Made by a program: the position numbers and the translations under genes
NCBI GenBank assembly: GCA_973895155.1
Contig: OZ316894.1
Coordinates: 14,151,680-14,215,679 of the forward strand
Length of the DNA: 64,000 nt
From: Marsupella aquatica
Taxonomy: Eukaryota; Plantae; Marchantiophyta
Direction of reading: 5' to 3'
Shown here: one piece after another, positions 14,681 to 64,000 of the stretch
Numbering within the stretch: position 1 is the stretch's first letter
Layout of the letters: every line of letters begins with the position of its first letter
Notes under the pieces: model-generated
What the model was told of the DNA's origin: nothing
The model's database searches: none
Seen by the model: the letters and a program-made list of their open reading frames with translations, nothing else

Positions 14681-14716
14681 GTGTTATGTGTATACTTAAG
14701 TGTATACACATAACAC
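14681..14716. repeat. Perfect 15-bp inverted repeat (hairpin) in the leader of copy 1
   Basis: GTGTTATGTGTATAC-ttaagt-GTATACACATAACAC. Confidence 0.9.
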
Positions 14717-15004
14717 TCCCTTGGGGGGCCCGGGTTTTTTGTTTCCGGCCACAATCTTCTTTGACCGGCTAATCCCGCTTCCGACTGTCACTGCCGATCT
14801 GCTACCCTGGATTGCTTCCGGCTGCTGCACCCTCGCTTTGAATTAATGCGTTTGCCCCTTTTTCTCCTGTTTTCTTTCTTCCGGTCGACCGTCGCCTGGT
14901 TCCTCTCTTTTCCCCCATCGTTGCTCCTCGGCTGCTCGGCCACCTGCATAGGGTCGCGCGCCACTTTTCTTGTTATGCCGAGTACAAAGCGACAGTCAAG
15001 AGGG

Positions 15005-17365: not shown

Positions 17366-18185
17366 TAGCAGGCTCCTCATCCTGCTCCTGCTTCCACTCC
17401 CCCACCAGCTAGGAGGGCTCCTATTGCCTCAGTTGCTCCTCCTTCCAATGGCAAAGCACCTGGTGCCAACAAATCGCCCAAGCAGCAACAGAAGCAACCA
17501 GCTCAGAAGGAGGCTCACAACGCACAGGCAACTCAACTCTAGTCTCTGACTCATGAGGTTGAGTCCCTACGTGCCCAACTTGCCAACATCAAACGCAAGT
17601 CAACTGCCTCTACTGGTCCTTCTCAACCGGCTGGTCACGTGCAACCCATCCCTGGCCCAGGCACCACTGATAGCTCAGCATCTCTACGTACCCCGCTCTT
17701 TTTATGGCTTGCCATTTGATGCTCATATGGGTGAGTGTGTGCTGTCCTCTGCTACACAGCCTGGCCTTACAGTAGAATCTTTAGATTCATTCTGCCCTTC
17801 CTATTTTGCTTACCAGTAGGCGAGTGCTGCCTTTCGTATTGCTCCCACACGCCGCATTGTATAGGCTGATGGTCTTGCTGCCGGTCCTATGACTAGAGCC
17901 AGGGGAGCTCGGGCTGTCCTACCCCAATCTTTTCAGCCACTCATACTTGCTAAAGAGCGCACCTTGTTGGCGAGGGGGGAGGGAGCTGCAGCTACATCCA
18001 TTCCACCACCAGGTGCTGTTGACATTTCACAGGGAGTTGTTTCTCCTGAGCTGCTTGAGCATTTCACCTCCGGTATGGCACAAAGGATTCTTACAACTCC
18101 ACTTTTTAGTTGCCATGATTTATAGCTAGATGCTAGAGCTGTCATCAGAGCGCTAGAGGGTTCACTGCATTCTTCATCAGCCCCT

Positions 18186-20160: not shown

Positions 20161-20469
20161 GTTCCAGCTCTACCACTCCATGGTGCTGCTACATGGCATC
20201 CAGACCAGGTGCACTTACCTCTATTCAACACTCACTGCTTCAGTCCAAGTGTTGGGGGGGAGGAGGTCCCTTGTAACGTGGCTGACAATATTTCTGAGTT
20301 TCATGGTGTGGACCAACTCAGATCAGCAGGTACAACAGGCCTTGGAGAGGCCTCATCACCTTATCAGCAGCATGCTAGCAGCTTGGACAGTGGAGAGGCT
20401 GGCACTTCTGGCTCTTCAAGCACGAGTACATAAGGTCCTATTCCTAGTGTTGCCAACTACACATTCATC

Positions 20470-22090: not shown

Positions 22091-23441
22091 AAGGTCCAAG
22101 CGCTACTTGTGGAAGGGAGATCATCTTGTGCGCTGCTTGCCAGACAGGGAAGTGGTGGTTCCACCCATTCATGAGAGGGTTGGCCTTATCCGTAAGGTAC
22201 ATTCTGAGCTTGGTCATTTTGGCATCAAGAGGACTTACAGCCTCTTGGTTCCCCATTATCATTGGAGAGGCATGCATGGCCAGGTTTGAGATGTTATTGC
22301 CCGGTGTGAGCAGTGTGATAGGGTAAGGACTTCTTTCACATCTTGGCAACCCACACTTCATCCACTCCCTATTCAGGGCATGTTTTATCGCTGGTCATGT
22401 GATCTGGCTGGAGAATTACCCCTCACTTCTCGGGGTAATCTCTACATCATGATCATGATAGAGCATTTCTCCAAGTGGATAGAACTTGTGGCATTGCCGG
22501 ATAAGACCTCCCGTAGCACCAGCCAGGCATTCCTGCAACAAGTTCTCAGTCGCTTTGGAGCTTGTGCAGAATGTCTCACTGACCAGGGCTCAGAGTTTAG
22601 AGGAGAGTTCCAGGAGCTGCTTGATCAGGCCCTCATTGATCATCGCCGGACATCACGAGATCACCCACAGGCAGATGGTTTGGCAGAGCGCATGGTTCAG
22701 ACATGCAAGAAGGGCCTCCGGAAGATCTGCCTCACCAAAAACAAGGAGGATTAGGACCTGGCCTTACCCTACATTGCTATGGGGTATAGGATGTCCAGAC
22801 ATGCATATATCACTGTCTAACTTTTCTCCCTACTTCTTGTTGTTTGGTCGTCACCCAGTTCCACCTTCTGCTATTGCTGCTCACATGCTTCAGGTGGTGG
22901 ACTTGGATTCAGCTGTGACTTGGTCTGATGTGATCTCTAAGAGGGCTGCCCTATTCAGGAGGGTTATGCCCATGCCATGGAGAATTTGGCCATTGCACAG
23001 CACAAGGACACATTGCGTTATGCACACACACGAGGGGGCAGTTTTCAGCCCAAGGTCAGGAAGTTTGATGTGGGAGATTTTGTGTACTTGCAGCGGCAAG
23101 CTAACGACACCCTGGACACCTCTACCAGTCGTACTATTCTCAAGGTTAAAGCTATTCGACCGTCTGGAGTGCTAGAGTTACAAGGGGCAGATGGGCGCAC
23201 AATTGCTGACAATGCTAAGAATTGTGCCCCTTGTCATCTGCCTAACCTGGATCCCACCATTGTGACTTCTACCTGGATTCCACCTGTGGACTACCCTTGC
23301 AAAGTGTGTTTGCGAATTGACGATGTTGACCAGATGCTACTGTGTGATAATTGCAATGGAGGGTACCATCTTTTCTGCCTTCGGCCTGAACTTACCCAAG
23401 TACCAGAAGGGTTATGGTTTTGCCCTTCCTGTGCTACCTGA
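22091..23441 (+). pseudogene. Integrase with C-terminal PHD finger (copy 1)
   Basis: H-x-GHFG...C..C zinc finger; DDE core WSCDL / LTDQGSEF / GLAERMV; PHD CKVC...LLCDNCNGGYHLFCL...WFCPSC (23298-23432). A few stops and frameshifts. Confidence 0.92.
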
Positions 23442-23655
23442 TTTTTCTTCAGCCCCCTTTTGGCTGTGGTCTAGGGGGGATACAGAGGTTTACACCTCCA
23501 CTACGTACATACCACCTCAATTGCTTTTTCTTGGCACTTGTGAATGTGATTGGACTTTTTCTATGCATGTTGGTTGCTAGCAACTTGCACATATGCATTG
23601 TTGGTGACTTGTATGTTTTCGATACACTATGGCTACGATACTATATGTCACGACA

Positions 23656-24485
23656 ATCTGACATAGACCTTACTAGAGGATTAGCGTATCATCATGAGAC
23701 AGATGGCCAAACAAAATGGGTGAATGGTATCATAGAGGATGACTTGCGTCAATTTGTGATGGCCAATCAAAAGGATTGAGCAAAGCACTTAACAATGGTC
23801 AAGTTTAGGTATAACTCGACCAAGCATTTGGCAATGGGGTTTGTGCCGTTTGTGTTGGCCACAGGGAGGACGCCAAGGGCGCCCTCTTGGTTCATAAATC
23901 CAAAATCTTGGCAGATGGAAAGCAAGGTTCCTTCTATGGATGATTTTATTTGAGAGTGACGCCTAGTTGTGGAAGCGGCTACCAAGGGTATGACCCTTGC
24001 CCAAAGTTGGTACAAGGAGCAAGGGGATAAACATCAATGTCAGGTAAGCTTCAAAATTGGGGAGAGCGTCTAGTTGTAGTTGAGACCTAAGCACTACCAC
24101 AGGAACATAAGTAAGAAGCTGTCTCCCAGGTATGTGGGGCCCTATTGCATCATACAATGGGCCCACAAGGATAATCCAGTTTTGGTGGTGTTGGAGACAC
24201 CAAGGAAATGGGTGTACGCAAAAGCTACCATGTTAGCCGACTCAAGAAATTTGTCAAAGACAATGATCCCAACCGGGATCAAGTCCTCCGTCCAGACGCC
24301 AGGCTGTGGAGGACGCTGAGGGGTTTGAGGTGGAGGCAATTCTAGACCACTGTTATAAACGCAAGCTAGGAAGGCAAATCTTAGAGTATTTGGTGAAGTG
24401 GGCTGACTATGACCAAGTCGAAAGTACTTGGGAATTGGAGAAAATTTTGGGTAATGCCCCAGAGATCCTTGGAAGCTATCTTTAG
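23656..24485 (+). pseudogene. Chromovirus integrase C-half, GPY motif and chromodomain
   Basis: AYHHETDGQT; KKLSPRYVGPY; FEVEAILDH...EYLVKWADYDQVESTWE (24324-24480). Confidence 0.88.
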
Positions 24486-24936
24486 CGAAGCGGCCTATTG
24501 CTGTTGTGAACTAGTACATATAGCTGTGGCTACCTTTGTCAGTTGTATCCTAGTTTCACTCATCTCGGCCTCTTGAAAATGAGATTGGATTGCGTGGGCG
24601 CTAGAGGTTGTTGGGCGGCCAATTTGCTTTTTGCGAGTGGAAGTTGATGGTGCTCGCTTCACATCTGTGGGCTGGTTAGTTCAAACTAAAGGGGGGTGAA
24701 AAAAGGGTCTGACGAGTTTGGAGTTGGCTTACCCGCTCGGACTGACATCCTACTTGGATAAGTGGGATAGGTTGGAATTTCCTAAGTCTGGAATGCGCAT
24801 ACCAACCTGGTTTGCATTAGCCTTATGGCATACCATTTGTTACCTTATAATATTTTTATGACCTAAAGTGGTCTAGGCGTGTTGGAATGTTTACTTAGGT
24901 CACGCAGACGTGACCATTTTTAAGGGGGGGTGCAAG

Positions 24937-26405
24937 TTGCGGAACTCGACTACCTTAACATTTAGCTCCGACATCGCTGACTCCAATGCCAAGCCCCCCT
25001 ATGGTCCAGGTCCAGAAAGGTCATCCGGGGAGGACTTAGCATGGGGAGACTTGTAGGCAATGGGGCGTGGCACTGACAAAGGCAAAGTGTTGAGCGGGTG
25101 GCACACAATAAGGACTTAGACTAGCCAAGGGTTGGTTGGATCAAGGGGAAAGGGCCGGGCTCAAGGTTGACCGTCCGGACTCTAGACAGAGTTCTGAGGG
25201 CTTGAGTGAGAGCTCCTCTTGGGCTCAAGACCAATGGAGTTGACTCCATGGGCAACAGACGCTTGGGGCACGAGTTATAGCCCAATCCGGGTTTGGCCGA
25301 GCATGGGTCTCGGGTGACAATGAGATCTGAGGACCTAGACATGAGCACTTGGTCGGTCCAATCACAACGGGCTAAGGCACTCCGCTTGCGGATGTCTAAC
25401 TAGAAAGTTATGGGCATTGCCAGTTGGTGGCGCGCCCAGACATGCCGGTTGGGGTCCAGATGGGGACCAAAGTTTGAGGACCAAAGTTGGTCCGGTGTGG
25501 CAGGTCTCCAAAAGCATATATTAGGGGAGTGGTGTCTCCTTGGGGGCTAAGGGCGAGCTGAAGTCGTAGGCCGTGGCGGTCGCGGCACTAAGGAAAAACG
25601 CCAAACAGAAACAACGATAACTTCCCAATGGTAAGTCCGTTGGAGGACTTCCTTGGTGCGTTGAAAAGCTCTCAAGGAGGGATACATGCATCCTTCTGAG
25701 ATCATTTGGGTCTAGGGGTGCTATAGGTTCTTGGGATTTGTGGGGGCTATCTTGCCCGCTTGCCAAATCCTGTCAAAATAGTAGCCAAGTCGCCTTCAGT
25801 CTCTCAAGGGAGCTTGCATTGGGGAGGCAAGGCCAAGTAGGTGTGGAGGTTGAGTTCCAAGGGCACTTGGCCCCTAGACCATCAGTGGGGCAAGAACCGG
25901 GAGTTGGTTGCTAGAATCGGGGCCATTCTGGTCCCGACATGTTGGGACAAGCTTTAGGACAAGCTATGCTAATTGGGCCATGAGCATGTCCTGGGGGTAG
26001 GATGGTCAGTTGGTGATGGATAGGTACAAGGGGGAACCCGAGCTACACCCGAGGAAGGAGCTGTTCTAAATGAACAGTGGGTGTTGGTTTTGGTTCCGGC
26101 TTATGGCATCGAGAGGACCTATTGCTGACCTACTTACCAATGTATGTTGAGCTTGAGTTAGGATGCTAGACTTGGGAGATCTAGATCCCGAGGGGTTACT
26201 TATCGAGACGCTTGGTTGCTTGTGCAGACAGTGAGAATCGTTGAGTAGCGGTTGTGTTGGAGAGCAAGTGCGGCTTCGTATGGGAGGGGCCGTAGGCAGT
26301 GCAAGGGGCACCAGGTTGCTTGCTCGAGGTATTTCGAGGAGTCATTTGGGCATCAAGGGCACTTAGGTGTGGGTGTTGGGATTGGTGAGGGCGTTGGGTG
26401 GTCAG
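24937..26405 (+). repeat. 3' LTR of the chromovirus (right end truncated)
   Basis: Follows the PPT; homologous to 3346-4498. Confidence 0.8.
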
Positions 26406-42200: not shown

Positions 42201-43271
42201 CTTCATGAATAGCTCCTCCAAAGAGCAGCAGCTTTTCTGTCTACAGAAGAACAGGATGAGGATTTCAGAAGTTACAGGTGAATCGAAGAATTAACAATCC
42301 AGGAAACTGAGGACGCTTCATTTAGATAATAACAAGATGGACCGTAATGCATCGACCGTAAAGGATCACCACCGCGGCGGCTTGCCACCCACAAGTCCAA
42401 GTCCAAGTCCAAGTCCGGGAAATCCCTTCGTTATCAACAAATTCCAAGTAGACGGGATCTGCTTTAAATAACCCTAGCTATCACTTGGATACTTGCCAGG
42501 GTTTTCCCATTCGTAAAATGCTGCAAAGTCGTCTACATCGAGGGGAACAATCCCCGTTTCAAACAAGCAAACTTTGTTATGATGCTTCAATGGCGAAACC
42601 ACTTGACAAGGCGGGACGGGGTTTCCAAGACTTCACGATTCGTTACACGCACAACTGCCCTAAATGCCTTTCCAGGGACCTACTAGAGTCGTTTTCCCCG
42701 CATCGGGATGCGAAATGATTGCAAAATTCCTTCTCCGAGCAACCTCCGTCGAAATAAGCTGGGGTGAGACTGGGCTCGAACCCTCCTGGCCGGAATATTT
42801 CAAGCCATTGCAGGCTGACTCGAAATTCTCATCGAGAACTTCCGTCCCGCCCAGTAACACAGAGGTGGGTCTTGCGCCTCTAATTCGTTCATTTTCCTCG
42901 ATACTACGAGCAAGCGGACCTGCTCCATTTCCATCAGCTTCGATTCTTAGAAGCTCGTCTTCGTCCGCTACCGGTGACTCCCCCGCAGCAGGAAGTTTAA
43001 GCTTGGCTACTGCCCTTCCTCTTCTTAACAGACCATTATACGGAGGGATTCTGAATTTCAGAGTTAGAAAAGATAGGATTGTCCACCTCGTCGTGAGACT
43101 TCCGACTTTGAAGTTGCTCTCACTTCCGACTTTAAGTTTGCTTTCACGCAAATAATCATAAGAGCCGAACCCACCTGAGCCCAGCTTACAAGAACTTATG
43201 GGCAAATCAGGCACCAGGAGAGTAGTCGGGAGAAGAGCCGAAGGCACTCGACAGCAAAGTAGAGAAGCCAT
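33246..43271 (-). CDS. prfC: Bacterial-type peptide chain release factor 3 (GTPase), probably organelle-targeted; 16 exons, ~706 aa
   Basis: Exons (minus strand): 43271-42684, 42240-42129, 41700-41621, 41312-41290, 41113-41032, 37297-37149, 36808-36655, 36393-36286, 36073-35960, 35747-35687, 35430-35308, 34795-34608, 34299-34231, 33990-33844, 33578-33525, 33314-33246. All introns GT-AG and phases consistent. RF3 signatures [90 protein letters not shown]-terminal extension of ~175 aa. Alternative upstream ATG at 43346. Confidence 0.93.
38724..39050 (+). mobile_element. 5'-truncated LINE 3' end (CCHC finger) inside prfC intron 5
   Basis: Frameshifted translation '...[12 protein letters not shown]...[11 protein letters not shown]' is the C-terminal CCHC motif of non-LTR retrotransposon ORF2. 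Confidence 0.55.
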
Positions 43272-43425
43272 CGCTAATGGAGTAATGGCGATGCTGGATC
43301 GCTCTCTGCGACACACATACAGTGCAGTAATGTTTAGTGATCGCATGACCTCTTGTCCTTTCGGTAATTCGGTGCATGATGACCGATGATGAGGTCGGAC
43401 AAGAAATAATTAATTTTAAAAGTTT

Positions 43426-46449: not shown

Positions 46450-49400
46450 AGTCAGAGGAGAAGGTTGTGACCCTTGGATTTGGCAAACTAAGAGTCTCCT
46501 GGAAGAAGTGTTGCTAGTACATCTGGTGGGCTACATCAATTGGGGAGTGTGCTAGGCCAGGGAGGGCACAACCCAATGCTCCCGATGGTGCTGTTGCTGG
46601 TGGCAAAGGAGCAATAGCACCCCAATGTCCCTTTCAACCTTCTTATGCCACTCAAGTGGAGTGTTGAATTGGAGCTGTAAGAGACCTCATAACCAACGTG
46701 ACTGCCTTGAGAGTAAGGGTCTACCATGTGTAGAGCAGGGAGGAGATACCCCTAGATAGCCTGATCTTAGGTGTTGTGACCATTGCCATAGAAATGGGCA
46801 TACTATTGAGAGATGTTTTGAGCTGCATCCAAAAATGCGATCTGATGCTGCGCGTAGGGAAGTTGCTCCTAGAGGTTGTGGAGGCCCCCGCCCTGGTCAT
46901 GGAGGTGATAGGGTAGTCCCAGTAGCCATTGCATAGACCATCAATCTAGCAGCAGCCAATTTAGCATTGCGGGCCCCTAGCAAAAGTGAGGCCTCTAGTT
47001 CTCGCACCATGGATAGTTCATAGATTGCTCTTGGCTTCAGCAACTTGGATTATATGTGCGGTGTTGCACAGTTAGATAGTGATGCAGCTATCACCAAAGC
47101 AGTGGCTAAGGCTGCTGAGCCACAAGGTGCTGCCATGGAGTTGGATCCAAAACAAGGGGAGGCCAGCCAACAACAGCAATTACCACATAGTTTTACATTG
47201 ATGGATGTTGCCTGGACTTCTACTATGGCATCAGTTGCTGACAAAAATGGACCTTCTATCCTCTCTCGTGATCACATAGGGCCACATAGCATTGATCCTG
47301 ACATGGTAACTAGCCCAGTGTTGGGGGCGGCTAGAGCCTTGTCAAGTTCCATTATTTTCTTGTGCTCAATTATCTTCCCTTGGAGTTCCTGTTGCAGATG
47401 TGTTGTGCTAGGCAGCTGCATTGTATGATATTGGAGCAATTTTGGCATCTAGCTGTGACACAACTGGTCCATAGGTTGGCCTAGATGGTTTCAAGTCCCG
47501 CCATTCTTTGATGAGAGATGCTGAGACTTCTTGGTAGGCTTTTGCTGCTTGATTGAGTGAGGTCCCTACTAGACCAGCCATTGATTGGAGTGTTGTGACT
47601 CCTGGTGTGGTTGTGGTGGACAACCGTGCTGGTGTTTTTACATTGGTTGGCCCTAGTGGCACGGTGTATGTGCCACCTTGTGTATTGTTGGATTTAGGTG
47701 CACAACCTCTCATGCTAGGGAAAGCAGCTATCCAAGGATTGGGCCTGAAGAAGGCTAAGGTGGAGCCTTTCCCATTTCAGATTCATACATCTCTTGGTGT
47801 ACAAGAGAAGGCGCAACACATGATGCAGGACAATCTCACTGTGAGGTTAAATCCCCACCGTATTGGAGATGATTTTGCCTTGAAGGTGAGAGCCGTTGTC
47901 ACACCTGCAGAGTCTTATGATGTTTTGGTAGGGGGAGTCGTACTCTACCTATGGGCTTTGTGTTGGATTACTAGCAAGAGACTATTCACTATCGACCAGG
48001 ATGGCAGTCTGGTGATGGTAGGAAGTGTGAGCTGCCACTACACTACTTCTTGCGTCGGACTGAGCCGTCACCAGAGAAGGTGATTAGTTTGTGAGCTTGT
48101 GCTTGAGCTATCACCTGGCCAAGTGATCTCTTGGAGGGTAATGCCCACGCTACAGACATCCCTATAGTAGAGGAGTTGCCAAGCTCCTCAGGTAACCACA
48201 ACATTCCCGTTGTACCACAGGTATGGGGTTCCACTCCTGAGTTACAGCAGCATGCAGATTTGTATGTACAGGCAACTTGGAGTGAACCATTTGCCCCTTT
48301 AGAGGAGCCACATGTGGTGGATGGCATTCCCAGTTTGATTACTATGTCCCTATTGGACACCACTCCCATTTTGTGGACATACCGTGCTGAGGGTATTTGC
48401 TTGTTGGAGTTGTTTGGAGGCATGAGCACTGGTTTAGTTGTTGTTTTACATGCTGGTATTAGAGTGCAATAGTATCTCTATGTGGAGCAAGATGACACAA
48501 CACGACGTGTCTCACTTCATCATGTTGCTCAGTTGCATCAGTAGTTCCCTGATTTGTTGCCCTTGCCAGCTATCAGAGGTTATGAGAATGCTTTGCCAAC
48601 TGACATCTCACTTTTGGGGGCGTTAGATTTAGTACACGTAGGTGAGATTCACCTTGTGATTGTTGGTTGGCCATGTCGGGGACATTCCTCTACTTGGACA
48701 GGATCTGGTCTCAAGACCATCATTCTCACATATTTTGGGCAATGCTGCGTGTGATGAGGTTTTTACAGGAGAAGCAACATATCTCTCCAACCTATATATA
48801 GGAGAATGTCCCCTTGTTGGGTGATACTAGGTCACATATGGTGGCTAGTATGCACCAAGTGAGGTCCTTGTTAGGACCTGCTGTCTTTTTAGATGCTGCT
48901 AGTGTCAGATCGATAGCACATCATCCACAATTATGGTGGACCAATTTGAATGCCACCTGAGGTTTTGCGGAGGGCATATCAGCACATTGTGCGGCCTGTT
49001 GGGCTCACCGTGGACCGCATTTTGGATGCTAGACGACATGCACAATTAGTGCGCCACGATGATCGCTCCCCATTAGCAGTGGTGAACCGGGTTGGTCAGC
49101 CACTGCAACACTACCCACTTTGGTGAGTTTCCTCTCATTGTATGCTTATCGTAACGGTGGATATGGGTTAATTTGGAATTCCCAGGACATCTTGCTGATA
49201 GAACCTATTGCTGATGAGCGTGAGCGTGCTACGGGATTCCAGACTTGCCCCACAACAGTACCCTTAGTGACTGAAGCAGCACGCCGTCACATTCTAGGTC
49301 ATGCTATGGATCTTAATTGTTTGACTTGGATTGTGAGCTTAGCCTTGGCAGAGTAGCGCCAGTTACAATCTTCTGTGACACATCCACATGGATGCTCTTC

Positions 49401-52400
49401 CTCTATCGGGTCACTAGAGATCAGAGCAGGGGGCAACAGTACCATAGATCGTCAACCCTGGACTTCATGGGGAGTCAATGGAGAGGCCAATGGGCTTTCT
49501 TTTTTGCAACAACATGGTATTGCTACTCCTCAGGTTGCAGCATAGCAACCATAGTTGGCATTCTTTGCCCCTTCTACCAAGGTTATCATTGATAGTTGGG
49601 AGCCAACTGATGGCCCCAAGATCACTGGAGGTGAGAGACGATGTGTATGACAGTTTTTGCGGAGTTATGGAAATTGTTTGCTTTCAACATGTAGGGTTTG
49701 GGCATGTTAAAGGGACCAGGCATCCAAATAGATTTGGCAGTTGATACGCCCATCTTTTGGATACCATATCGGTATTATGATATGGAGAGGGCACTAATTC
49801 AGGCAAGGTGCCAGGATTTTGTTGGTAGAAGGAATTGTGGAGAAGTCATTTGGTGAGTATGCTTTTGCCATTGTGATGCCAGCAAAGAAGGATATGCATG
49901 GCAATTGGACTAATAGGAGGATGTGTGGAGACTATCATCCAATTAATCAGCATACTAAGTCTGATAGGTTTGCCATGCCCACCCTAGAGGAGATATTTGA
50001 TACCATTGGGCATGCGAGAGTATTTAGCACATTGGATCAGGATTGGTGACAGGCAAAAGACAGCATTCTAGGGGATTGTTGCTCATTGTTGTATCAATGA
50101 CTATTTTCACCAGCTGAGTTTCGAAGGGTCATGGATTGGATTTTGGCAAACCTGGATTTTGCCAAATATTATATAGATGACATTATTGTCTATAGTGACA
50201 CTGTGGAGGAGCATGCTATATATTTGCAACAGGTGTTTGAGCGACTCCGAGAGTATGGATTGAAGTTGCATCCTGGAAAATATAAGTTCTTCCATGACCA
50301 GATTGCATATTTAGGGCATAGCATTTATTCAGGTGGATTGGGTGTGTAGCAAACAAAGGTGGAGGAAATTGTTGGCACCCCTTAGCCTACAGATGTGAGT
50401 AGAGTCCAAGCATTTTTTGAGCTTGCAAACTTCTACCGAAGGTATGTGAAAGGATTCAGTGCAATTGCAAAACCTTTGACATTACTTACAAGACTGGACC
50501 ATGAGTAGCAATGGGGTGTTGACCAGGATAGAGCTTTCTATCAGTTGAAGGAAAAGTTCACATCAGCACTCATCTTGAGGAAACCTATTAGGGGACGTCC
50601 ATTTAGGTTGCATACTGATTGGAGCATGCTGGGACTTGGAGAAGTGCTCACTCAATAGGATGACGAAGGAAGGAAGTTTGTGGTAGCATATGCCAATCAA
50701 TCAAATAACATTGCAAAATCAAAGTATGGCTCCTATGAGGGATTATGCTTGGTTGTAGTGTGGGCAATGGCTCATTTTTTATGTTACTTGTTTGGCAATC
50801 CCTTCACTCTTGTTATGGATCACCAACCACTCAAATGGTTGATGGAATCAGACAAACTTATTGTTAAGCTTGCTCATTGGGCACTCATACTTTAGGAGTA
50901 TGATTTTGAGGTCTTGCATAGACCTGGTCACTTACATTAGGATGCTGATGGATTGAGTCATAATCCTTGTCCAAGCCAGAGGGATTTAACAGGAGCACAT
51001 TGGCATGATGAGGCAGATGAGGAGATGGTGCCAGGTTGACATGCTTCTACTTATTTGTGCTTGTTGTTAAGTCTGGATGGTTTTGGTGTAGTGGCATCAT
51101 TAGAGAGACCCAATGCAGACTTTGTGGATCCAGAGATTTCTAGTGAGGAGTCTGTTGGACATGATATTCATGATGATGTAGATGTTGTGTGTATCTATGC
51201 ACAGGTAGCATGCCAGGCATGATAATTGCCAAGGAGAGAGATTGGATCCTACAACAAGCTAAGAGGTTTAGATGGGAAGGATCTCACCTATTGAGAGTTT
51301 GGGATGATGACAGGGTGCGGTTGGTACCTCCTTTATCCCAGCGTGCACGGTTGGTGCGACATGCTCATGAAGAGCTTGGACATTTTAGAGTGAAGCGGAC
51401 ATATAACTTACTCCAGACCCAATATTGGTGGCGTGGAATGCATGCTGAGGTGCAATAGTTGGTGGCGCGGTGTATTGTGTGTGATAGAGTGAGAGCATCA
51501 TTTAATGCTCCTACCTTGCAGCTGCATCCCTTGCCAATCTTGGGCTTGGGATATTGTTGGAGTTTAGATTTTGCTGGACCCTTATCATTGACTAGACATC
51601 ACAACCGTTATGCTTTAGTGATGGTGGAACACTTTTCTAAATGGATTGAGTTGGTTGCATTGCCAAATAAAGGTAGTGAAGGAGTTGCCTATGCCTTTTT
51701 GGATCGTGTATTGAGCCATTTTGGTGCTCTAGCTAAGATTTTGACTGACCAGGGGACTTTGTTTTGGGAAGATTTTTAGGCCTTGTATGATCAAGCATTG
51801 ATTGATCACCATACTACGTCTAGGGATCATCCGGAGGCAAACGGATTGGCAAAAATAGTTGTCCAGACAATGAAGAGAGGATTGCGGAAGTATGGCTTGC
51901 AAAAGGATCATGTGAGTGATTGGGATATCCAACTATCATGGTTAGCGATGGGATATTGTTTCAGTAGGCAAGCATCTCTTGCATCCTTTTCACCATATTT
52001 GCTGCTCTATGGTAGAGAGCCAGTGTTGCCAACAACCATTCAAAGGGAGGTTGGTGAGGTGTTGCAGTTGGATGACCTTGATATATGGATGCAAGCTTTT
52101 TCTCAACAGGCAGACTAGTTTTGGAGAGTGATGCCCATGGCGTTTGAGAACTTAGCTATTGCGCAGCATCAAGATACTTTGAGGTATGCCACTATTCGGG
52201 GAGGAGGATGTTGCCCTAGCATTAGGCAATTTCGTTCTAGAGATTATGTGTATCTGCAACAGACAACACCTATTACTTTGGATGTTACTACCAAACGTAC
52301 TATTCTGCAAGTGCAAAAGGTTCTGCCATCAGGCATCCTGATTTTAGAACGTCGTGACGGTATAGTTTGAAAGGATCATGTGCGTAACTATGCACCTTGT

Positions 52401-52896
52401 CACCTTCCAAACATTGATGATAGCATAGATCCTAGTCTAGCAGTGGTACCTGCAGGTTTATGATGTATGTTGTGTGGATCTGCCCGTGGAGTTGCAACCA
52501 TGTTGATTTGTGATGGTTACTCAAGAGGTTGGCACTTGGCATGTTTGACGCCACCTCTTGATTCAGTCCCTGAAGGACGATGGTTGTGTCCCAATTATAG
52601 ATAGAGATTGACTTTAGTTAGCATAAAACTTATTAGATAGTATAGATTGCAGGTAGGCGATTAACGATGGGGCTCCTTTGCACCCGGCCTCTTGATCTGT
52701 GCACCCAAAAGGTGTATACTTCCTTTTAGTTTTAGGGCTAGTTGTAGTTAGCGGGAAATCCTAAACCCTAACCACCAGGTAGGGGGGGTGGTTATGGATT
52801 TCAGCATACATATGTTGTGTGTTGTGTGATTATATTTTTCTTGTTTACATGATGTGCTGCTATGTGAGTTGTGTATGGATGTGTGTCCGCACGGCA
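46450..52896 (+). mobile_element. DNMT/PHD-carrying Ty3/gypsy element, copy 2 (5'-truncated, decayed, divergent subfamily)
   Basis: PR 'LLDLGAQPLMLG...YDVLVG'; DNMT LELFGGMSTG, GWPCRG (48665-48682), ENV (48802), WWTNL, DERERATGF, RHILGHAMDL; RT YIDD; RH TDWS; integrase; PHD ~52464-52600; PPT aggggggg 52781-52788; terminus CACGGCA at 52896. Confidence 0.88.
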
Positions 52897-53499
52897 ATCC
52901 CCAACTTGTCCCAAGCGCCAAAACCAACTTGGCCCCAATTCTAGAAACCGTCTCTATGGATCCAACTCAACCAATTCAAGAGTTTGAGGGCATGATGCAC
53001 TTGGACCTCAACACCCATGTCTACTTTGCATTGCCTCCCCAATGCAAGCTCCCATGGGAAATTGAATGCAACTTGGCTGCTATTTTGATAGGATTCTTAA
53101 GCAGGCAAGATAACCCTAGCAAGCCATGAGGACCAAAGGCATCCCAAGACCCAGTGATATCAAGAGAAGATGCCCCTCCTTTGTTGGATAAATTCTTTAT
53201 CCCAAGACACCATGCACATGTAAATACCATACAAAGTAATCGACACAACGAGTACATGGTTCACCTCTCGATTGAGGCTACGTCCATGGGAAAGCAAGAG
53301 ACCTTTACTTCTCTCTTGCTCCACTCCAACAATGAACTGAAGATCCACCAGGGGCTAGCATCAGCTCTGGTTATATACAGCATGCATCACTGCTAACCTT
53401 AGCTAAGTCCTAACTTGAGTTAGCCTAACTGTGGTTAGCCCTAGAGTCACAAGACTAAAAGCAATATTCAACAAACTCCCCCTTGACTCTAGTCTTGGG

Positions 53500-56400
53500 G
53501 ATTGAACTAATTGCTACCATATGGTCTTGAGAAACTCTCCAAAATAATCACTTTGGTAAAAGCATCAGCCGGGTTGAGTTTACTGTCAATCTTGACTAGC
53601 TCAAACTGATTATTAGACACACCCTGCCTAATAAAATGGTAAATTGACGTTGATGTGCTTCACCTTACTGTCCATCACTTGGTTCACAGCAAGGTGAAGA
53701 ACACTCTGACTATCATAATGGAGCTTCACATTCCCCTGTGGCAATCCCATCTCAGTGATAAGTCTATCCAACTAAATAGCTTCCTTTGTTGTTTCCGCTG
53801 CTGCAACATACTTAGCTTCTGTAGTAGAATGAACAATACACTTTTGCAAAGTAGACCTCCAACTTATGCATCCACCGCCAAGTGTGAACACATACCCAAT
53901 TGTTGATCTCCTCCAATCCAAATCATGTGCATAGTCAGCATCTACATAGCCCATCAATGATTTTGCATTATCAGCATGTGCATCAAACAAAAGACCATGA
54001 TCCATGGTACCCTTCAAGTACCAAAAAATCCACTTCACTGCTTCCTAGTCTACCTTCCTTGGATTTGATATGTACCTGCTCACCTTGCCCATAGCCATGG
54101 TAAGATCAGGTCTAGTGCAAGTCATCAAACACATGAGACTCCCCATTGCCTTGTCATAAGGAACCTTTGACATCAGCCCCCTCTCTGTCTCATCCGTAGG
54201 ACAAAAAGCTGATGACAACTTGAAGTGTGGAGCCAACAAGGTACTTATTGGCTTGCTATCCCCCATGTTGAACCTTGCAATTACCTTCCTTGCATAACTG
54301 CTTTGCGTCAACCATAGCTTACCAGCCTTCAAGTCCCTAGTGATCTCCATACCCAAAATCCTCTTAGCTAGCCCTAAGCCCTTCATCTTAAGCTCTGCAC
54401 TAAGAAGTACCTTGAGCTTAACAATCTCAGATCTATCCTTGGCCGCAATAAGCATGTCATCCACATAAAATCCCGCATAAAGTACTAAAATAATAAAACC
54501 AATATTGACAATATTCTTCACCAGTTTAAGATACACACAAAGATCAAATATACTCTTGTGAAAACCCTCTGCACGAATCCAATCATCAAACTGCTTATTC
54601 CATTGCCTTGGTGACTGCTTCAACCCGTACAAGGATCTGAGCAATTTTCAAACCAAATCCTCTTGCCCTTTCTTCACAAAACCTAGCGGCTATCTCATGA
54701 AGATCATGTCTTCCAATGTGCCATAGAGGAAAGCTATGACAACATCCATCTGATCTAGCAGCAGACCAAATAAAACAACAAATACACACAATAGTCGTAT
54801 TGTAGAGTACTTAGCAACTGGTGAGAAGACCTCATTGTAATCCACACCTTTTTCTTGTGTGAATCCCTTGATTACCAACCTAGCCTTGTAGACCTTTGAT
54901 CCACCTCATGTGGACTGATCCTTCAACTTGTAAATCCACTTGCTAGACTTCAGGAAGCTTGACCAACTCCCAAGTCTTGTTGGGGCCATATGATCATTGT
55001 TAGACGCAATTTGAATATCATCTAGTTTAGATGAATCTGCCCATTGTCCATACCTGGTAGGAGCTCTAGTAAAATGACTTGAAGTTTGTCTAGTAGATGA
55101 TTTAGGCTGATCTTCTGCTACTGCTGGCTGAATTTGAGGGACACCAACATCAATCTGCTCCTCTTGTTCCATCACAAGAACTAGCTCCATACCCTAAGCA
55201 TCTCTTTCTTTCCTGTCAAAAACATCATCATGACTTATCTCCCCCCAACCGGGTCCGGGATAGGAGATTTTCTCTTGTCAGTATGGGAGCCTTGAGAACT
55301 CTTCTCCTCCTTTGATGATCTGGATTCATTAAAGGAACCATCTCTATTGACAATTATCTTAGAGGTTGTTGGATCCCATAACCTTTTACACCTTCCTGAT
55401 ACCCAAGGAAAATGCATTTACTCGACTTGGACTCCAACTTAGACCAAAGTTGGGAAGGTGTAAGCACATAAGAAGGGTTTTCACCGTGAGAGCAAATAGC
55501 AAACAAATTTACTATTATGAGCAAAAATTTACTGTTATGAGAAAAATAGACAATCTAAAAATATGTCATTAACAATCACAATTTTCAAAATAATTTAAAA
55601 CACGATAATTTTTTGCTAGTGTAAGGCAATACTATTACTACTTGGGGTGCTAGCCAAAAAATATAGACCCTACAAAAACATTTAATATTTTTCCTCCCAA
55701 AAACAAAATACAAAAAAATAAAAAATAAAAAAATTCCAAAACATTTACCACCCGTTTGTTGTTATGAGTAACTATTTGTTGTTTGCTATTTACTGTTTGT
55801 TGTCACGGTGGTTATATTTGCACATAATATCACAGCCAAAAACCCTCAGATGTGAATAATCTGCTTGACGCTCATACCTGATTTCAAATGGCGTCTTGAA
55901 TCCAATTGTATTGGATGGAGAGAAATTTACCAAATAAGCTGCAGTGTTAACAGCTTCTGCCTAGAATTCATGTGGTAAGCATAATTGGCTCAACATACTC
56001 CTCGAGCGCTTCAATAGTGTTTGGTTGAGCCTCTCAAAAAACTATTTTGCTGAGGAGTATAACTTGTTGTGAGATGACGTGTAATCCCCTATTCCTTCCA
56101 AATTCACCAAAACTGTATTTACTGTCGTAACCCGATCAAAGATATCTCACCTTGTTACTAGTCTAATTTTCAACTCGGGCTTTTCACTCCTTAAAAGTGG
56201 CAAAAACATCAAACTTATTGTGTAGAAAGTATATCCACACATACCTTGAGTAATCGTAAAAAAACGTGACATAATAAACTCTTCCAGATTGTGAAGGAAT
56301 AGGGGCTGGTGCCCACACATTACTATGTACATACTCAAGTACCTCCTGGCTGGTGTGAGTTCCAACTCCGAGGGGTTTCCTATGTTGTTTTCCAAGCACA

Positions 56401-57218
56401 CATAGAAATCTAACTTACAAGATTGCAAATTAGAAAGTAATCCTTTTTTCTGAAGAACAACCAACCATTTTCACTCATGTGACCCAATATGAAGTGCCAC
56501 AATCGGGTCGTCTCCTCATGAGACAAGGTTACATTGGCTTCATCACAGACTATATTGCCCTCCAAAACGTATACATTTGTGTGTCTCTTTCCCTTCAATA
56601 CAACCTTAGTACCAGTTGAAACCTGAAAGACACCATTTGCAAAACTTCACCGATGGCCATTTGCTTCTAACATTCCAAGTGAAATGAGATTTTTCATCAT
56701 GCTGGGAATATGTCTCACATTTCTCAAAGTTCTCACAACACCATCAAACATCTGAAATCTCATAGATCCAAGTCCAACCACTTGACATGGGATTCCATTT
56801 CCCATCAATACTAAACTGTTGAAAATTGTGTAAGAACAAAAAAATTTCTCCTATAGCAAATGTGAAAGGTACATGCACCATCTAGTATCCAGTCATCATC
56901 ACCTGGATGTGACACTACGTTGAGAGCAAAACCTTGGCATCATAAAATGTCATCATCAAGTAAATCTACCTTATGTGCGCTAGATGTCGCATTAGCTGAT
57001 GCGGTAGAGTCCTTTACCCGACAATCCCTCTTCATGTGGCCAGACTTGCCACATCTCCAACATGCAAGAGGCTTCCTCTCTTGTGATTTCCCTCTAGATT
57101 TAGATCGTCTCCTTGACTTAGATCTAAACTTGTTTTCTCCATTCGTCCACTAAGTAGACCTCCCACGGTTCACATTCAATGCAGCACTAGATGAAGATGT
57201 TGTTTGGGCTTGACTCGA
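53500..57218 (-). pseudogene. Copia gag C-end, protease, integrase, RT and RNaseH (many frameshifts)
   Basis: CWRCGKSGHMKRDC; DWILDGACTFH; LWHFILGHMSE; LRSLYGLKQSPRQW; YVDDML; GYVDADYA...RSTIGYVF...STTEAKY. Confidence 0.9.
55475..55810. mobile_element. AT-rich MITE inserted in the copia integrase
   Basis: Inverted termini (GGGTTTT)CACCGTGA ... TCACGGTG with subterminal AAATAGCAAACAA inverted matches; no clean TSD. Confidence 0.6.
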
Positions 57219-57222
57219 GGCT

Positions 57223-60200
57223 TGTCGTGTGCATACACATCGCTACACAACATACATCGCTTGTCACACATATCCAAGCATAGTCACAATCCACTAACAC
57301 AAACATAAGAGAATGGAGTACAAATGGAACCAATATCCACACATGCCCAAAACCCACAATAATCTTTTTTGGATGAAATCGAACAACGATCAGTGCTAAT
57401 CCAACAACGATCCCGTCCAACTCGATCACACATATATGTCAAGCCCAACGCACCTTGTGCTTCAAGGAATCCACGTTAAATGCACACAACCTGGTCAACC
57501 ACACCATAGCCACCAAGCTCATGCTCAAAGGCTTAACATTGAAAGATGAGGCCTTTGAGCCAACACAAGGGGATAACTATCCCTCACACCAACTCAAACT
57601 AAACACAAAGTGCTCATATAGCACACATACAAAACCTCTATACCCTAGATAGTACGATATACTTTACTACCACTCTAAATGGTGTGACAGCTGTCGTGCG
57701 CATACACATCGCTACACAATATACATCGCTTGTCACACATATCCAAACATAGTCACAATCCACTAACACAAACATAAGAGAATGGAGTACAAATGGAACC
57801 AATGTCCACACATGCCCAAAACCCACAATCGCCCCCCTAGCTGGGAGTGAAGTCCCCTAACTCTAGCTAGCCATGAGTTCTACAAGGTTAATATACACCT
57901 TTTTAGGTGCGAAGATCAGGAGGCAGGGTGCAAGTGAGCCCCATCGATCACCTACCTGCAATCTATATCTTCCACAAGAACACAAATGATAACTAGTTGG
58001 CATCACCGACATTGAGGACAAAACCATGATCCGCTAGGAATCATGTGCAATGGTGGTGTCAAACACGACATGTGTCATCCTCTAGAACACCTATCACAAA
58101 TCAACATAGTAGCTGGTTCCCGAGCAGACCCACACAACATACACTTCAAGCTAGCACGAACATGTGCCAAGCTTGGATCCACAGTGCCATCAATGTTTGG
58201 AAGGTGACATGACGCACAATTACGCACGTGATCCTCCCAAACCATATCATCACGCCCTTCCAACATAAGGACTCTAGAAGGCAACACTTTACGCACACGC
58301 AAGATTGTCCGCCCTACGGTCACATCAAGCGTTGTTGGTGCTGTCTGCTGCAAATAAACAGAATCGCCAGGATGAAATCTCCTAATCCTCGTGCGATAAC
58401 CTCCTCCACGAATAGTAGCATACCGCAAAGTATCACGATGCTGGGCAATAGCAAGGTTGTCAAAGGCCATGGGCATGACTCTCTCAAAAACTTATGCCCT
58501 CTCTGAACAAACCTTTACCCAAATATCTGGATCATCCAAATCCACAACAGTTGCAACATCACAACGAATAGCCGTTGGCAAATCTGGCTCTCTACCATAG
58601 AGCAAGAAATAGGGTGAGAAGGATGCAAGTGATGCTTGTCGACTGAAACGGTAGCCCATAGCTAACCAAGGTAGTTGGAGATCCCAGTCTCCCAAATGAC
58701 CAACCTGCAAGCCATATTTGCGCAATCCTCTCTTCACAGTTTGTACAACTCTCTCTGCCAATCCATCCGCCTTAGGATGATCGCGAGAAATAGTGTGATG
58801 GTCAATCAGAGCTTGCTCACACAAAACCTCAAAATCCCCATAGAATTCCGTGCCCTGATCAGTCAACACCTCAGCTGGTGCTCCAAAGTGACTGAGTACT
58901 CGATCCAGAAATATGGTAGCCACTCCTCTACTAGCTTTATCTGGCAATGCCACTAGTTCAATTCCACTTGGAGAAGTGCTCCACCATAACCAAAACATAA
59001 CGGTTATGTCGTTGGGTGAGAGGCAATGGACCAGCAAAGTCCAAACTCCATCTGTACCCCAAACCCATGATTGGCAATGGATGCAACTGGGGAGTGGGAG
59101 CATTAAATGATGCCCTCACTCGATCACATACCACACACTTAGCTATCAGTTGCTGGACATGAGTGTGCATACCACGCCACCAATACTGTGTCTGTAGCAA
59201 ACTGTAAGTGCGCTTCACACCAAAGTGATCCAACTCCTCGTGCGCATGTCGCACCAAATGTACTTGTTGTGATGGTTTTGGTACCACCAATACCTTACCA
59301 TCACGTAGTACTCTCAAAAGATGGTTTCCTTCCCATCGAAACCTCTTGGCTCTCTGTAGAACCCTGTCACGTTCCTTGGCATCAACACTGCCAACAATAG
59401 AACCACTGAGCAAATATTCCAACACTCTCACATCATTGTGAATATCTTGTTGTCCAGAAGTTACCTCACCAACATACACATCTGAAGACTCATCATCTAC
59501 TTCATCCAATGAAGTAGAATCCACAGATCCACTGCATGCTGGAACCCAACCAAGGAAGGCAGATGCATGCCATCCTGGAACCATCTCCTTATCTGACTCA
59601 TCATGCCATCTGGCTCCAGTCTCATCCTGCTGACTGGTACATGGGTTGCGGCTCAATCCATCCGCATCCAAGTTCACTTTTCCAGGTCTATGTACAACCT
59701 GGAAATCATATATTCCTGCAATAACAATGCCCATCTTGCAAGCTTCCCAATAAGCTAGTCAGACTCCATTAACCACTTGAGAGGCTGATGATCAGTGATC
59801 AAAGTGAAAGGATTACCAAACAAGTAACAACGGAAGTGTGCCACAGCCCACACTGCTGCCAAACACTCTCCCTCATAAGAGCTATACTTAGCCTCTGCTG
59901 AATTGTTTGATCTACTGGCATATGCCACAACAAACTCATGCCCTTCATCATCTTTCTGAGTCAGCACTGCTCCAAGTCCTACTCCACTCCAATCAGTGTG
60001 TAGCTGAAATGGTCTCCCTGAAATGGGTCTTCTCAAAATAGGGGATGATGCCAATCTTTCTTTCAACTCCTGAAAGGCATGCTCCTGATCATCACCCCAA
60101 ATCCATTCCTGATCCAACTTAGTGAGTATGGTCAAAGGTTTAGCAAGCTGGCTAAATCCTTTAACATACCTCCTATAGTAGCTCGCCAATCCCAAGAATG

Positions 60201-61305
60201 CACGAACTCTGCTCACATCAGTAGGACGAGGAATCTGTGTAATGGCCTCCACTTTAGTCTGTTGTACACCCAATCCCCCTGGGTATATAGTGTGGCCCAA
60301 ATACTCAATCTGTTCTTGGAAGAACTTACACTTGCCGGGATGGAGCTTCAATCCATGTTCCCTCAATCTCTCAAACACAATCTGCAAGTGTCGTTGATGT
60401 TCTTCCATAGTAGAAGAATAAACCAAAATATCATCAATATAACATCTGACAAAATCCAAACCTGCAAGGATTCGATCCATGACTCTCTGGAACTCAGCTG
60501 GTGCATTCTTCAACCCAAATGGTAAGAACAACCACTAATACAAACGATCCTTGCCATAAGAATCAATTCCCCAGAATGTTGTCTTGGACCTGTCAGAATG
60601 TCTGATTGGAAGCTGATGGTACCCTGCCCTCAGATCCAATGAACTAAAAACCTTTGCATGCCCCACTGCATCAAAGATCTCCTCAGGTGTGGGCATGGCA
60701 TATCGATCAGATTTTGTCTGACGATTAATAGGTCGGTAATCACCACACATACACCTATCCGTGTAATTACCATGCACATCCTTCTTGGCTGGCATCACTG
60801 TGGCAGATGCATACTCCCCGTATGAGGTCTCCACCAAACCAGCCTCCAACAAATCCTGAGTTCTGCTCTGAATCAAAGCTCTTTCCATGTCACTATAACG
60901 ATATGGTCTATGAAAGATTGGCGCATCACTAGCCAATTCAATCTGAATACCAGGGCCCTTCAATGTCCCCAAATCCTTCATGCTGAATGCAAAACAATTC
61001 CAGTAACTCTTCAAGAATCGATGCATGCGACGTCTCTCCTCCCCAGTCAACTTAGGACCAATCTGTGGCTCCCAACTCTCCACCAGATCAGCGCAATGCA
61101 CACAACCTGGTCAGCCACACCATAGCCACCAAGCTCATGCTCAAAGGCTCAACATTGAAAGATGAGGCCTTTGAGCCAACACAAGGGGATAACTATCCCT
61201 CACACCAACTCAAACTAAACACAAAGTGCTCATATAGCACACATACAAAACCTCTATACCCTAGATAGTACGATATACTTTACTACCACTCTAAATGGTG
61301 TGACA
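57223..61305 (-). mobile_element. Copy 3 of the PHD-integrase gypsy family (internal deletion removes gag-PR-DNMT), with split/permuted repeats
   Basis: TSD GGCT (57219-57222 / 61306-61309); removing the insert and one TSD restores the copia gag frame (KKLGQA|SSQAQ). Repeats A 57223-57360 / 57692-57829 and B 57479-57689 / 61095-61305. RT YIDD, RH TDWS, integrase, PHD ~58010-58143; PPT revcomp at 57830-57840. Confidence 0.92.
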
Positions 61306-61309
61306 GGCT

Positions 61310-61900
61310 TGACCCAATTTTTTCTGTGCATCATCTGACAACAAAGAGCATACTACCTCATCGTATGAAATAGACTTTAGGTCTCTATACAAGAGAACCT
61401 ACTTCAAACCCTAATAAGATGGGGGTAAAGAGCTAAGAAGAAGCAAGGCCTTATTCTCTTCTTCAATGCCCTTACCAAGATTAGACAAATCAATAGCTAG
61501 GCTGTCAAATTCATTCAAGTGATCCTGAAACTTATTCCCCTCTTTGAGCCTCAGGCTCATCAAGAGAGAGTTCTTGTATAATTGGTCTGAGATATCCTTC
61601 CGATAGTACTTCTTTCTTAAGGCTTTGAATAGAGATGCACAATCTGCGTAGTCATCCAACTTCTTGATGATATGCGGCTTCAGATAAAGCATCACCGCAT
61701 TCACTGCCATCACTTATTCCTGCCTCCACCTCTTTAGTGGAATCTCCTTTTCACCATCATACATCTCTTGTGTAGAGAGAAGATGATCTAGGCCCATAAC
61801 ACAAAGAACTCATTTCACTTGCTTCTCCCAAAGCAAGTAGTCCGTACCCCCATCACACTTTTTGACCTCAAACTTGACACCTCCAAACCTGTCATATTTT
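61310..61900 (-). pseudogene. Copia gag N-part
   Basis: ORF 61411-61713 'DHLNEFDSLAIDLSNLGKGIEEENKALLLLSSLPPSY', a typical copia Gag. Confidence 0.85.
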
Positions 61901-64000
61901 TTTCTTCACAACTATCGTTAGCTCCAGTAGTACGATTGCTTCCTCCACTTGCTGCACCGGTGATGGTACCGGTGTCACATACTCTTCCTTCTGCTCCCCT
62001 CTCTCCACCTCAAATCGCCATGGTGATCCTCATGCTTCAAGCTCCACATCTTCGAATTTCTTCTCCGAATCACTCATGTGAGAAAATCACAAAAAATGTT
62101 GTTTTTCAAAACTTCTCAAAAAACTCAAAACTAATCACCATTGCATAGCCCACAAAGTTAGGAGTCCAACACTGAAAACCAAAATTGAAACCAAAATCCG
62201 ACAAAAAAGTTATTCAAATTTTGGTCGGGGTGGGTAAAACCTTGGGAACTCTCCCGTTTTGACCACCTCAGGGAATAACCAAGTACAACCTATCATTGGA
62301 ATTGCGATTCAATTGGTGCACTCCATTGCTAACTTCATTGGCTACGTCCTCGCCAAAAAAGATTTGAAAAAGTTATCATTTGGACCTTAGAATTTCTAAC
62401 TAACTGCCAAAAAATAGCTCTCTATTTTTTTGGGATATTCCCTGCATAGTACAACAGGGCTTATAGGGGGCCGTTCCCCTGTCGGAGCGATTAAAATAGA
62501 GGGTCATCGGGCCCGGGATGAGGGAGAACCAATGGAAATCCGGGAAAAAATATTAAAACCAGGCCTAAAGGGGTTTTAAGGGCCCTTAACAAAAAATTCC
62601 TTTGTATAAGGGCCAGGCCAAATGCGGGAGGGAGTTGCACAGGGTGTATGGTCGGGCAAGTATGGGGTCGGGCGTGGGGGCATCAAGACAGCCGCGTACT
62701 CGCGGCGTACGCTGCAAAGGGTGGGGTCGGGGGTCACAAGGCAGTCATCGGGGCAGGCAACAACTGGCAAAGGAAGGGAGGGCACCGGGCAAGCCACAAC
62801 CCGTGGCTTGCGGGTCAAAGAGGCGGAAATACAAAGGCGGGTGGCGGAGCGCGCGCCGTGGTTGCCGTTGAGTGTAGCCGATTGGGAGGAGGGGGTATGC
62901 AGGGGTGTGGGGGTATGCACGGGAGTACGTGCGTGTATACACACATTTTTGTGTGTATTCACACAAAACTCCTCTAAGGTAACCTAAATAAAAATTTTGC
63001 TGAAAAAACGCCGGTTACACACCTTAATTGCCACTGCTTTGCACGAGAAAAATGACTATCACTGACGGAAAAAGTTGCCAAATTGCACCGGCACAGTCTG
63101 CAAGCTCAACAGAGAAAAAACTTCTTGTCATGTCGCCTTCACTCCACGTCAAGGGCTAATCTTGGACTCAAAATGACCGCTTCTTCGTGATGTCTTCGTT
63201 GAGCCTTAGCACTTTGCGTTTCTTTCTTTGAGTCGGACGTGACAACAAGAAAACCCGGTTCAGATGGGAACAAGCTCCATATTTTATAAAACATTTGAAT
63301 GTCTCTTTCACTAGTTGTATTGCACTTGGTAAACACTCGGCAACAATTCAGCTACCGAAATGACCAGCTCGCCTCAACCTACAACTTGAGTAGTAACATG
63401 CAACACCTCGTGCACCGCAAAGCTCACACCGTTTCAAAAACCAACTCTGGTCTCTTCCCCCAAAATGCCGCCAAACACAAAAAATTCAGAGACAAACATT
63501 TTCTGCGAGTACTCCTCACTCAGAAATTTGATCGATGATTTCTAACAGTTAGAAAGCTCTCTCAACAATCTATCCGATGAGCCCACCACCAACCAGTTTC
63601 ATGTGACAAAAACTCCCGGGATCTTCAAACCATCAACTACACAAGAAATTCTTGTCACCACAGTGTCACCTCCCAGGCATGCTCTGATACCACTTGTTGG
63701 GTAAATTCCTTATGCCGAGACATCATGCACATGTAAATACCATACAAGTAATCGACACAACAAGTACGTGGTTCACCTCCCGATTGAGGCTACGTCCACA
63801 GGAGAGCAATACTCAACATCCTTGAGAGATTTCTAACGTACCCAAGAAGTTATCCAACAAATTTTCCCTCGAGGAGAATATCACAGTTTGTTTTTGCCAT
63901 TTCTCCTTAGTAGCGCAATCATTGCGCTCCATGACTTGGGCTTGCCTTTGGCCCACTAGGAGACACCACTCCCCTCAAATATGCTTCTAGACCTGACACC

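Follow-up and report, generated by a model that had tools for sequence, protein, structure and literature searches.

Long terminal repeat (LTR) retrotransposons and retroviruses are held to integrate linear complementary DNA (cDNA) through attachment (att) sites at its termini, and the circle-junction model of 1984 (Panganiban and Temin) was set aside within the 1980s, as recounted in PMC11054761. The retroviral circle junction is presented as a minor or disputed integration route (PMC11054761, PMC4372172), and retroviral integrases are described as able to cut palindromic circle junctions (PMC1180852; PMC4372172). Split direct repeats have been defined for tyrosine recombinase (YR) elements (PMC4157794), and a self-priming arrangement for Tf1-type elements (10.1101/2022.12.06.519325; PMC6317226). 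The legend of Fig. 4c in PMC5890265 (2018) assigns DIRS-type repeats with Gypsy domains to KnitGypsy-Dnmt3 of Klebsormidium nitens. Here we describe an element of Marsupella aquatica that joins such split repeats to Gypsy-type enzymes. It occupies positions 57223–61305, on the minus strand, of a 64-kb stretch of contig OZ316894.1 (14,151,680 to 14,215,679), which is referred to as the window and to which all positions relate unless a JGI locus is named.

The long form of the element resembles PAT, Ngaro and VIPER in its A1-ORFs-B1-A2-B2 layout (ORF, open reading frame) and in an internal junction that matches the ends once these are joined. It differs from them in having a DDE integrase instead of a YR, a 4-bp target-site duplication (TSD), TG...CA ends, a polypurine tract (PPT) together with a primer-binding site (PBS), and a Gypsy-type reverse transcriptase (RT), and in that a short form devoid of repeats is the commoner class. 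The YR retrotransposons of the PAT/Ngaro type are not known to leave a TSD. With the Tf1/sushi and Tcn1 chromoviruses the element shares a self-priming PBS, a PPT, the order protease (PR)-RT-RNase H (RH)-integrase (INT), and a chromatin-reader domain after the integrase, but this domain is a PHD finger instead of a chromodomain, a C5 cytosine methyltransferase (DNMT) is present, and the LTR is permuted with an internal att site. This palindromic, head-to-head site is similar to the junction of a 2-LTR circle, which the DDE integrases of foamy virus and HIV-1 cut, as the integrase presumably does here. In those systems, however, the att site is the circle junction itself, whereas here the palindrome is encoded in each LTR, a single 2-bp spacer serves both ends, and canonical ends were seen in none of the copies.

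Read on the minus strand, the element begins with B' (61305–61095; 211 bp, starting TGTCAC) and runs through a broken pol (58003–61094) to the PPT TAGGGGGGCG (57830–57839), A' (57692–57829; 138 bp, ending CACGACA), the 2-bp spacer GC (57691–57690), B (57689–57479), S (57478–57361; 118 bp), and A (57223–57360, again ending CACGACA). B plus S is referred to as X and A as Y. Thus, A' is Y1, A is Y2, and the second copy of X (X2, 57361–57689) has 329 bp, as repeat comparison and relatives agree. B' is the 5' copy of X, with only 211 of the 329 bp left; complete relatives have the entire X followed by the PBS. B' and B differ at 2 positions and A' and A at 4, rates without significant contrast (Fisher P 0.22). 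The first base of A' directly follows ...TAGGGGGGCG, the same PPT as in relatives, and the S/A join falls on the identical first base of A, supported by repeat comparison and by contigs. The end of Y, the spacer and the start of X compose the strandless palindrome GACA-GC-TGTC (57686–57695), a junction that recurs in relatives, and GACAGCTGTC occurs once in the 64 kb. Both borders carry AGCC (5', 61309–61306; 3', 57222–57219, both read on the minus strand), and the gag frame of the host Copia element runs through the site. Locally, the six bases CAAGCC are found on either side; the length of the TSD is therefore ambiguous from this locus by itself and is fixed as 4 bp by the relatives. A sequence-only reading had proposed these coordinates, repeats, spacer, PPT and flanks, with the TG and CA ends head to head inside the LTR and a 4-bp TSD; all of them hold on re-reading, and we regard this anatomy as practically certain.

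The layout recurs in other assemblies. We scanned the best 80 of 395 JGI loci, 46 of which match the X/Y references of two families. The remaining 34, including L007, L008, L009 and L060 (read by eye), were not counted, and neither were L014/L016 and L057, whose X start is missing, nor L046, which is interrupted before the PPT. Repeated assemblies of one insertion were merged by their flanks before counting. Complete elements take a long form, TSD-X-internal-PPT-Y-GC-X-Y-TSD, or a short form, TSD-X-internal-PPT-Y-TSD, which has no terminal repeats. The 29 distinct 3' ends of the two families comprise 18 short (PPT-Y-flank) and 11 long ones (PPT-Y-GC-X); among the latter, one has its att site deleted, one is seen only to the contig end, and one has a truncated second Y. 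The window adds the element itself (long) and a diverged relative, E3 (short). Every 5' end starts at X with no Y in front (16/16 in JGI loci, 18/18 including the window), and a whole LTR stands at none of these 18 termini. The TSD is perfect in 6 of the 8 complete JGI elements, the other two having 1 and 2 mismatches, and in 8 of 10 when the element and E3 are included; TG...CA ends with a TSD of 4–6 bp are a trait of Ty3/Gypsy elements. The sequence-only reading had predicted only B..A and B..A-GC-B-S-A forms, and no other form was found among the JGI copies; the ordinary LTR copies or locus-specific tail that it named as counter-evidence did not appear, as no copy among the 18 5' ends is canonical and the junctions are conserved across families.

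The junction CA-GC-TG is present in the families of the element, L022, L079, L009 and L060, and L007 has a GT spacer. It is identical in L009, L015, L037, L041, L060 and L068, and elsewhere the spacer shows one-base variants (AC, GT, TC). The families with the junction have RT-RH sequences 54–73% identical to that of the element. The X2/Y2 join is identical in 5/5 insertions of the L022 family, and 2 of 4 in the L079 family have a few extra PBS-like bases. L008, outside the counted families, has a short 3' end. In the long copy L051, a deletion between short repeats (13262–13517) has taken out the att junction, leaving Y fused with X. The 5' flank of L027 and the 3' flank of L011 both have AACG beside the element, and the two may be halves of one short-form insertion. 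L060 shows Y-GC-X (3775–4546), in which X would have ~755 bp; a 14–16-nt self-complement follows at 4531, and the arrangement is either a true tandem or the result of assembly collapse. A protein scan of viral contigs gave 39 stretches, none of them related; the junction pattern had 42 matches there, none of which (0/42) has pol nearby, and they were taken as chance.

The family of the element itself was inspected in contigs from four public sequencing runs (3 studies; one run possibly from the same sample as the window) aligned to 57100–58300. In X1, the contigs with unrelated flanks number 17, 23 and 15 at positions 57222, 57223 and 57692, respectively (agreement 0.40–0.44). So many unrelated flanks past the end of A mark it as the true terminus of many copies, and many different flanks likewise follow the Y end of A' in other copies. 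In all four runs, 6–14 contigs match rightwards from 57678 and diverge inside B. As only 12 bases of B lie in the matched stretch, they probably cross the A'-GC-B junction of a subfamily with a different B. Minority alleles are common to A and A' at two positions (57294/57763 and 57332/57801). Among the contig loose ends listed, none is canonical, which is a weak absence.

The same contigs locate a candidate PBS. In 3 of the 4 runs, contigs leave S at 57360, and the next 12 nt exactly match the reverse complement of 57547–57536, the predicted self-primer ATCTTTCAATGT (minus strand; 1/5000 shuffles), which is likely the RNA 5' end. From homology with L022-type X, the primer of this family had been expected in B just before TGAGCC before the contigs with the PBS were examined. 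The PBS sequence also lies within the X1 loose end at 57376. B' holds an identical 12-nt motif, a predicted self-primer at 61152–61163 (minus strand) as placed by the 3616-bp repeat spacing. The last 14 nt of S, once considered a retained PBS, were dropped, as the contigs place the PBS beyond S. In all 5 cases tested, 11–14 nt directly after the 5' X are complementary to a site inside X (0–9/5000 shuffles). In the L022 and L079 families this site lies ~25–30 nt behind a TATA box, and in L048/L050 primer and PBS change in concert. In the folded 5' RNA of L051 the first 11 nt pair with the PBS (z -2.31). In L007, where X and the internal region are not connected within the contig, a search for a self-primer gave no convincing candidate.

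The PPT in front and the predicted self-priming PBS behind bracket Y-GC-X; hence, Y-GC-X is the unit duplicated by reverse transcription, which bears out the A-GC-B-S unit of the sequence-only reading. With Y-GC-X as the true LTR, the X2/Y2 join is an LTR end on an LTR start. Alleles present in two copies are mostly shared within one element: 11/19 for Y of the L079 family (chance 14%), 15/23 for X of the L022 family (chance 20%), and 5/7 for the first 56 bp of Y (chance 11%). Such sharing is as expected if both copies are made from one template in each cycle.

The enzymes are those of Gypsy elements. Pfam domains RVT_1, RT_RNaseH, Integrase_H2C2 and rve identify RT, RH, and an HHCC + DDE integrase in the pol of the element, confirming the DDE integrase previously proposed; its closest counterparts are the integrases of foamy virus and Ty3. 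The order is PR-RT-RH-INT with a Gypsy-type RT, the element itself having RT-RH-INT and the PR being seen only in relatives. The domain after the integrase is a PHD finger, read from the sequence in the element and matched by Pfam in relatives, and there is no chromodomain. PF00145 (C5 methyltransferase) is found in L007, L009 and, weakly, E3, and is deleted in the element. No tyrosine recombinase was matched by Pfam in 11 window ORFs or in 8 of the 16 L007/L009 ORFs listed. The nearest RT-RH proteins are from the liverworts Calypogeia (82–83%) and Marchantia (77–78%), followed by metagenome proteins, Klebsormidium and Closterium, and many of them have a PHD finger or DNMT. In the RT-RH tree, built with one high-scoring segment pair per locus and without L015 (under 120 aa), the element groups with Calypogeia, Marchantia, L022 and the second window relative, E2, and E3/L079 has two Klebsormidium proteins as its sister. 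Every permuted-LTR element included falls in one 29-row clade (support 95/86), which includes Klebsormidium P0064 and P0099. The lineage is Gypsy by its enzymes, and neither a canonical LTR element nor a YR element. In L007 (5083–5091) and L009 (4661–4669), an in-frame TAG with CAR after it lies between gag-PR-DNMT and RT-RH-INT-PHD. Of 7 further loci, 4 (L013, L022, L028, L055) have TAG-CAA at the corresponding position ahead of RT, as does E2 (window ~49540); stop-codon readthrough is likely.

KnitGypsy-Dnmt3, as far as the legend goes, is alike in combining a Gypsy pol and C5 methyltransferase with DIRS-like repeats. It may be of the same lineage, given P0064 and P0099 in the clade. The text and text supplements of PMC5890265 that were searched mention no TSD, att junction, PBS, short form or mechanism, and its supplementary figures could hold more. 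The accessible text of 10.64898/2026.05.21.726589 has nothing on a permuted layout. Nowhere in the literature searched, whose coverage ends short of Repbase Reports and most subscription journals, did we find an LTR described as permuted around an internal att site, so a prior description is possible. The view that no such gypsy lineage had been described therefore needs to be narrowed: the layout appears to have been glimpsed once, whereas the mechanism, the att site, the TSD, the self-priming PBS and the short form devoid of repeats seem to be undescribed.

Cleavage at the internal att site in some form is very probable. We consider it likely that a Ty3/Gypsy lineage ranging from charophyte algae to bryophytes relocated its att site to the middle of the LTR, so that joining of the cDNA ends became obligate and was coupled to a staggered CA-GC-TG cut, giving a self-sustaining circle-junction route in which most insertions have no terminal repeats and are invisible to LTR finders. 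With somewhat more reserve, we favor the version in which this permuted-LTR Gypsy lineage forms a circle before its DDE integrase cuts the internal palindrome. Transcription would start in the 5' X ~25–30 nt behind the TATA box and end in the second X, and the first 11–14 nt of the RNA, judged from their complementarity, would serve, as in Tf1, to prime minus-strand synthesis. By established LTR biology, the PPT and PBS observed here predict a linear cDNA Y-GC-X-internal-Y-GC-X, whose ends have no att site. Ligation of the blunt ends would create the X/Y join observed at S/A. Both strands of GACA-GC-TGTC would then be cut after CA with a 2-nt stagger, which would produce two ordinary processed ends (CA-3'OH with a 5' GC overhang). 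The observed insertions have a 4-bp TSD and TG...CA ends that lack the GC. A cut at the left att site would yield the long form, while a 1-LTR circle or cuts at both sites would yield the short form. As the long form alone has R (the transcribed part of X) at both ends, only this form is predicted to reproduce. A bias towards the left att site is proposed; this site is predicted to be double-stranded long before the right one.

Several observations weigh against the circle-first version or parts of its evidence. In a symmetric 2-LTR circle the two att sites are equal, and the mirror form X-Y-GC-X-internal-Y would be expected as well. This form was found at none of the 16 JGI 5' ends and none of the 18 including the window, an absence with P of about 0.0005 (16) or 0.0002 (18) if it were as frequent as the long form. 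Accordingly, the earlier proposal of a 2-LTR circle product stands as to the long and short forms and falls short as to the expected mirror B-S-A-GC-B-S-internal-A (0/18). Either the left att site may be preferred, plausibly as the first to become double-stranded and as favored by selection, or mirror copies may collapse to the short form via their longer, closely spaced X repeats. Besides, the two counted JGI families possibly come from one or few host genomes, and L007, L009 and L060 may be collapsed assemblies that show the junction only. B of the window has no clear TATA box, the minimum-energy fold of the E3 5' RNA leaves primer and PBS unpaired (z -0.12), and for full-length Y of the L022 family only 1 of 6 two-copy alleles is shared within an element.

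If the left att site of linear cDNA were cut, both new ends inserted and X sealed to Y by host end-joining, the products would be identical without any free circle, and the linear-substrate rule of LTR elements (PMC11054761) would be kept. Yet each productive insertion would then need a double-strand break, the join is base-exact in 5/5 L022-family insertions, and the missing mirror form would be left unexplained too; we think this course of events unlikely. Replication of the PAT/Ngaro type with a DDE integrase, in which the RNA includes Y2, the internal Y-GC-X templates the ends and the X/Y join is inherited, would account for the exact join and matches the A1-ORFs-B1-A2-B2 layout (PMC4157794; PMC5890265, Fig. 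4c legend), and some two-copy alleles are indeed shared by position (4/6, 6/19). However, the borders of Y-GC-X coincide exactly with PPT and PBS, as required for LTR-type priming, Y1 and Y2 of one element have private alleles in common, the scan of 8 ORFs revealed no tyrosine recombinase, and TSDs are present, which together make this replication mode quite improbable. An ordinary TG...CA LTR (B-S-A) altered at this locus by chance deletions, tandem insertion or assembly error is already refuted. B-S-A does start with TG and end with CA, tandem LTR-element structures are reported as common in plants (PMC11899658), and the window copy carries one real deletion. Nevertheless, Y and not TG-X follows the PPT in 29/29 JGI 3' ends, and likewise in three elements of the window and in four additional families; behind the 5' X comes the PBS and not Y; short forms with perfect TSDs wholly lack a terminal repeat; and the layout recurs in unrelated assemblies.

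With the att palindrome internal, the circle-junction route can be tested on a defined 10-bp substrate. The lineage also shows that a DDE integrase is compatible with the origin of split direct repeats, a point of relevance to the evolution of the PAT/Ngaro repeats. The short copies have no terminal repeats, and X-Y resembles a solo LTR. REXdb is described as built with LTR-FINDER (PMC6317226), and in the genomes of bryophytes and algae, pipelines that depend on two LTRs would probably overlook an abundant class or set its borders wrongly.

The copy in the window is dead, with a 5' deletion and a broken pol. B' abuts the linker ahead of RT, and S, the PBS and gag-PR-DNMT are deleted from the 5' end; since intact copies run B-S-PBS-internal, B' in the window is a deletion product. 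The pol has stops and frameshifts. The element sits in the gag of a broken Copia element (53400–62000, minus strand; gag 61411–61713, RVT_2 54045–54647), whose frame resumes across the site once one AGCC is removed (flanks translated separately). Contigs from another run show the host region free of the insertion and 12 bases shorter (loose end at 57214), and other copies of the host Copia lack 12 bases of gag linker at the insertion site.

The window holds two diverged relatives, both on the plus strand. E3 (14185–23655) is a short form X-internal-Y that starts TGTCATG, finishes CACGACA, has no terminal repeat, and is flanked by the TSD ATCT (14181–14184 and 23656–23659). It interrupts the integrase of another element in frame and encodes gag-PR-DNMT-RT-RH-INT-PHD. 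Its self-primer (14386–14399) has a 14-nt complement, the PBS (14541–14554), directly after X (14185–14540), with 0/5000 shuffles as good; a tRNA-like stretch at 16065 was rejected as PBS after this self-complement was found. Its Y (23480–23655), as read from the sequence, adjoins the PPT, starts ATAC and ends CACGACA. The region from PBS to gag (14690–16050) is unusually long, with a degenerate tandem repeat near 15221–15482. E2 (46500–52896, start approximate) has a pol 70% identical in DNA and ends with the PPT and a ~108-bp Y, ending CACGGCA, before the flank; a TG/TSD scan and BLAST did not find its 5' end. In all three elements of the window, a short segment comes after the PPT, ending in CA and opening with something other than TG-X. 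A C5 cytosine methyltransferase domain lies between PR and RT in E3 (18126–19988, weak PF00145) and E2 (~48380–49350, by eye).

Elsewhere in the window, an ORF on the minus strand (42660–43409) ends in a translation-factor GTPase motif and is presumably an exon of a host gene such as release factor 3. A separate Gypsy-type pol is located at 10206–11765 (minus strand), and another repeat family is present in pieces at 3344–4486, 24935–26401, 52996–53162 and 63694–63999 (74–90% identity).

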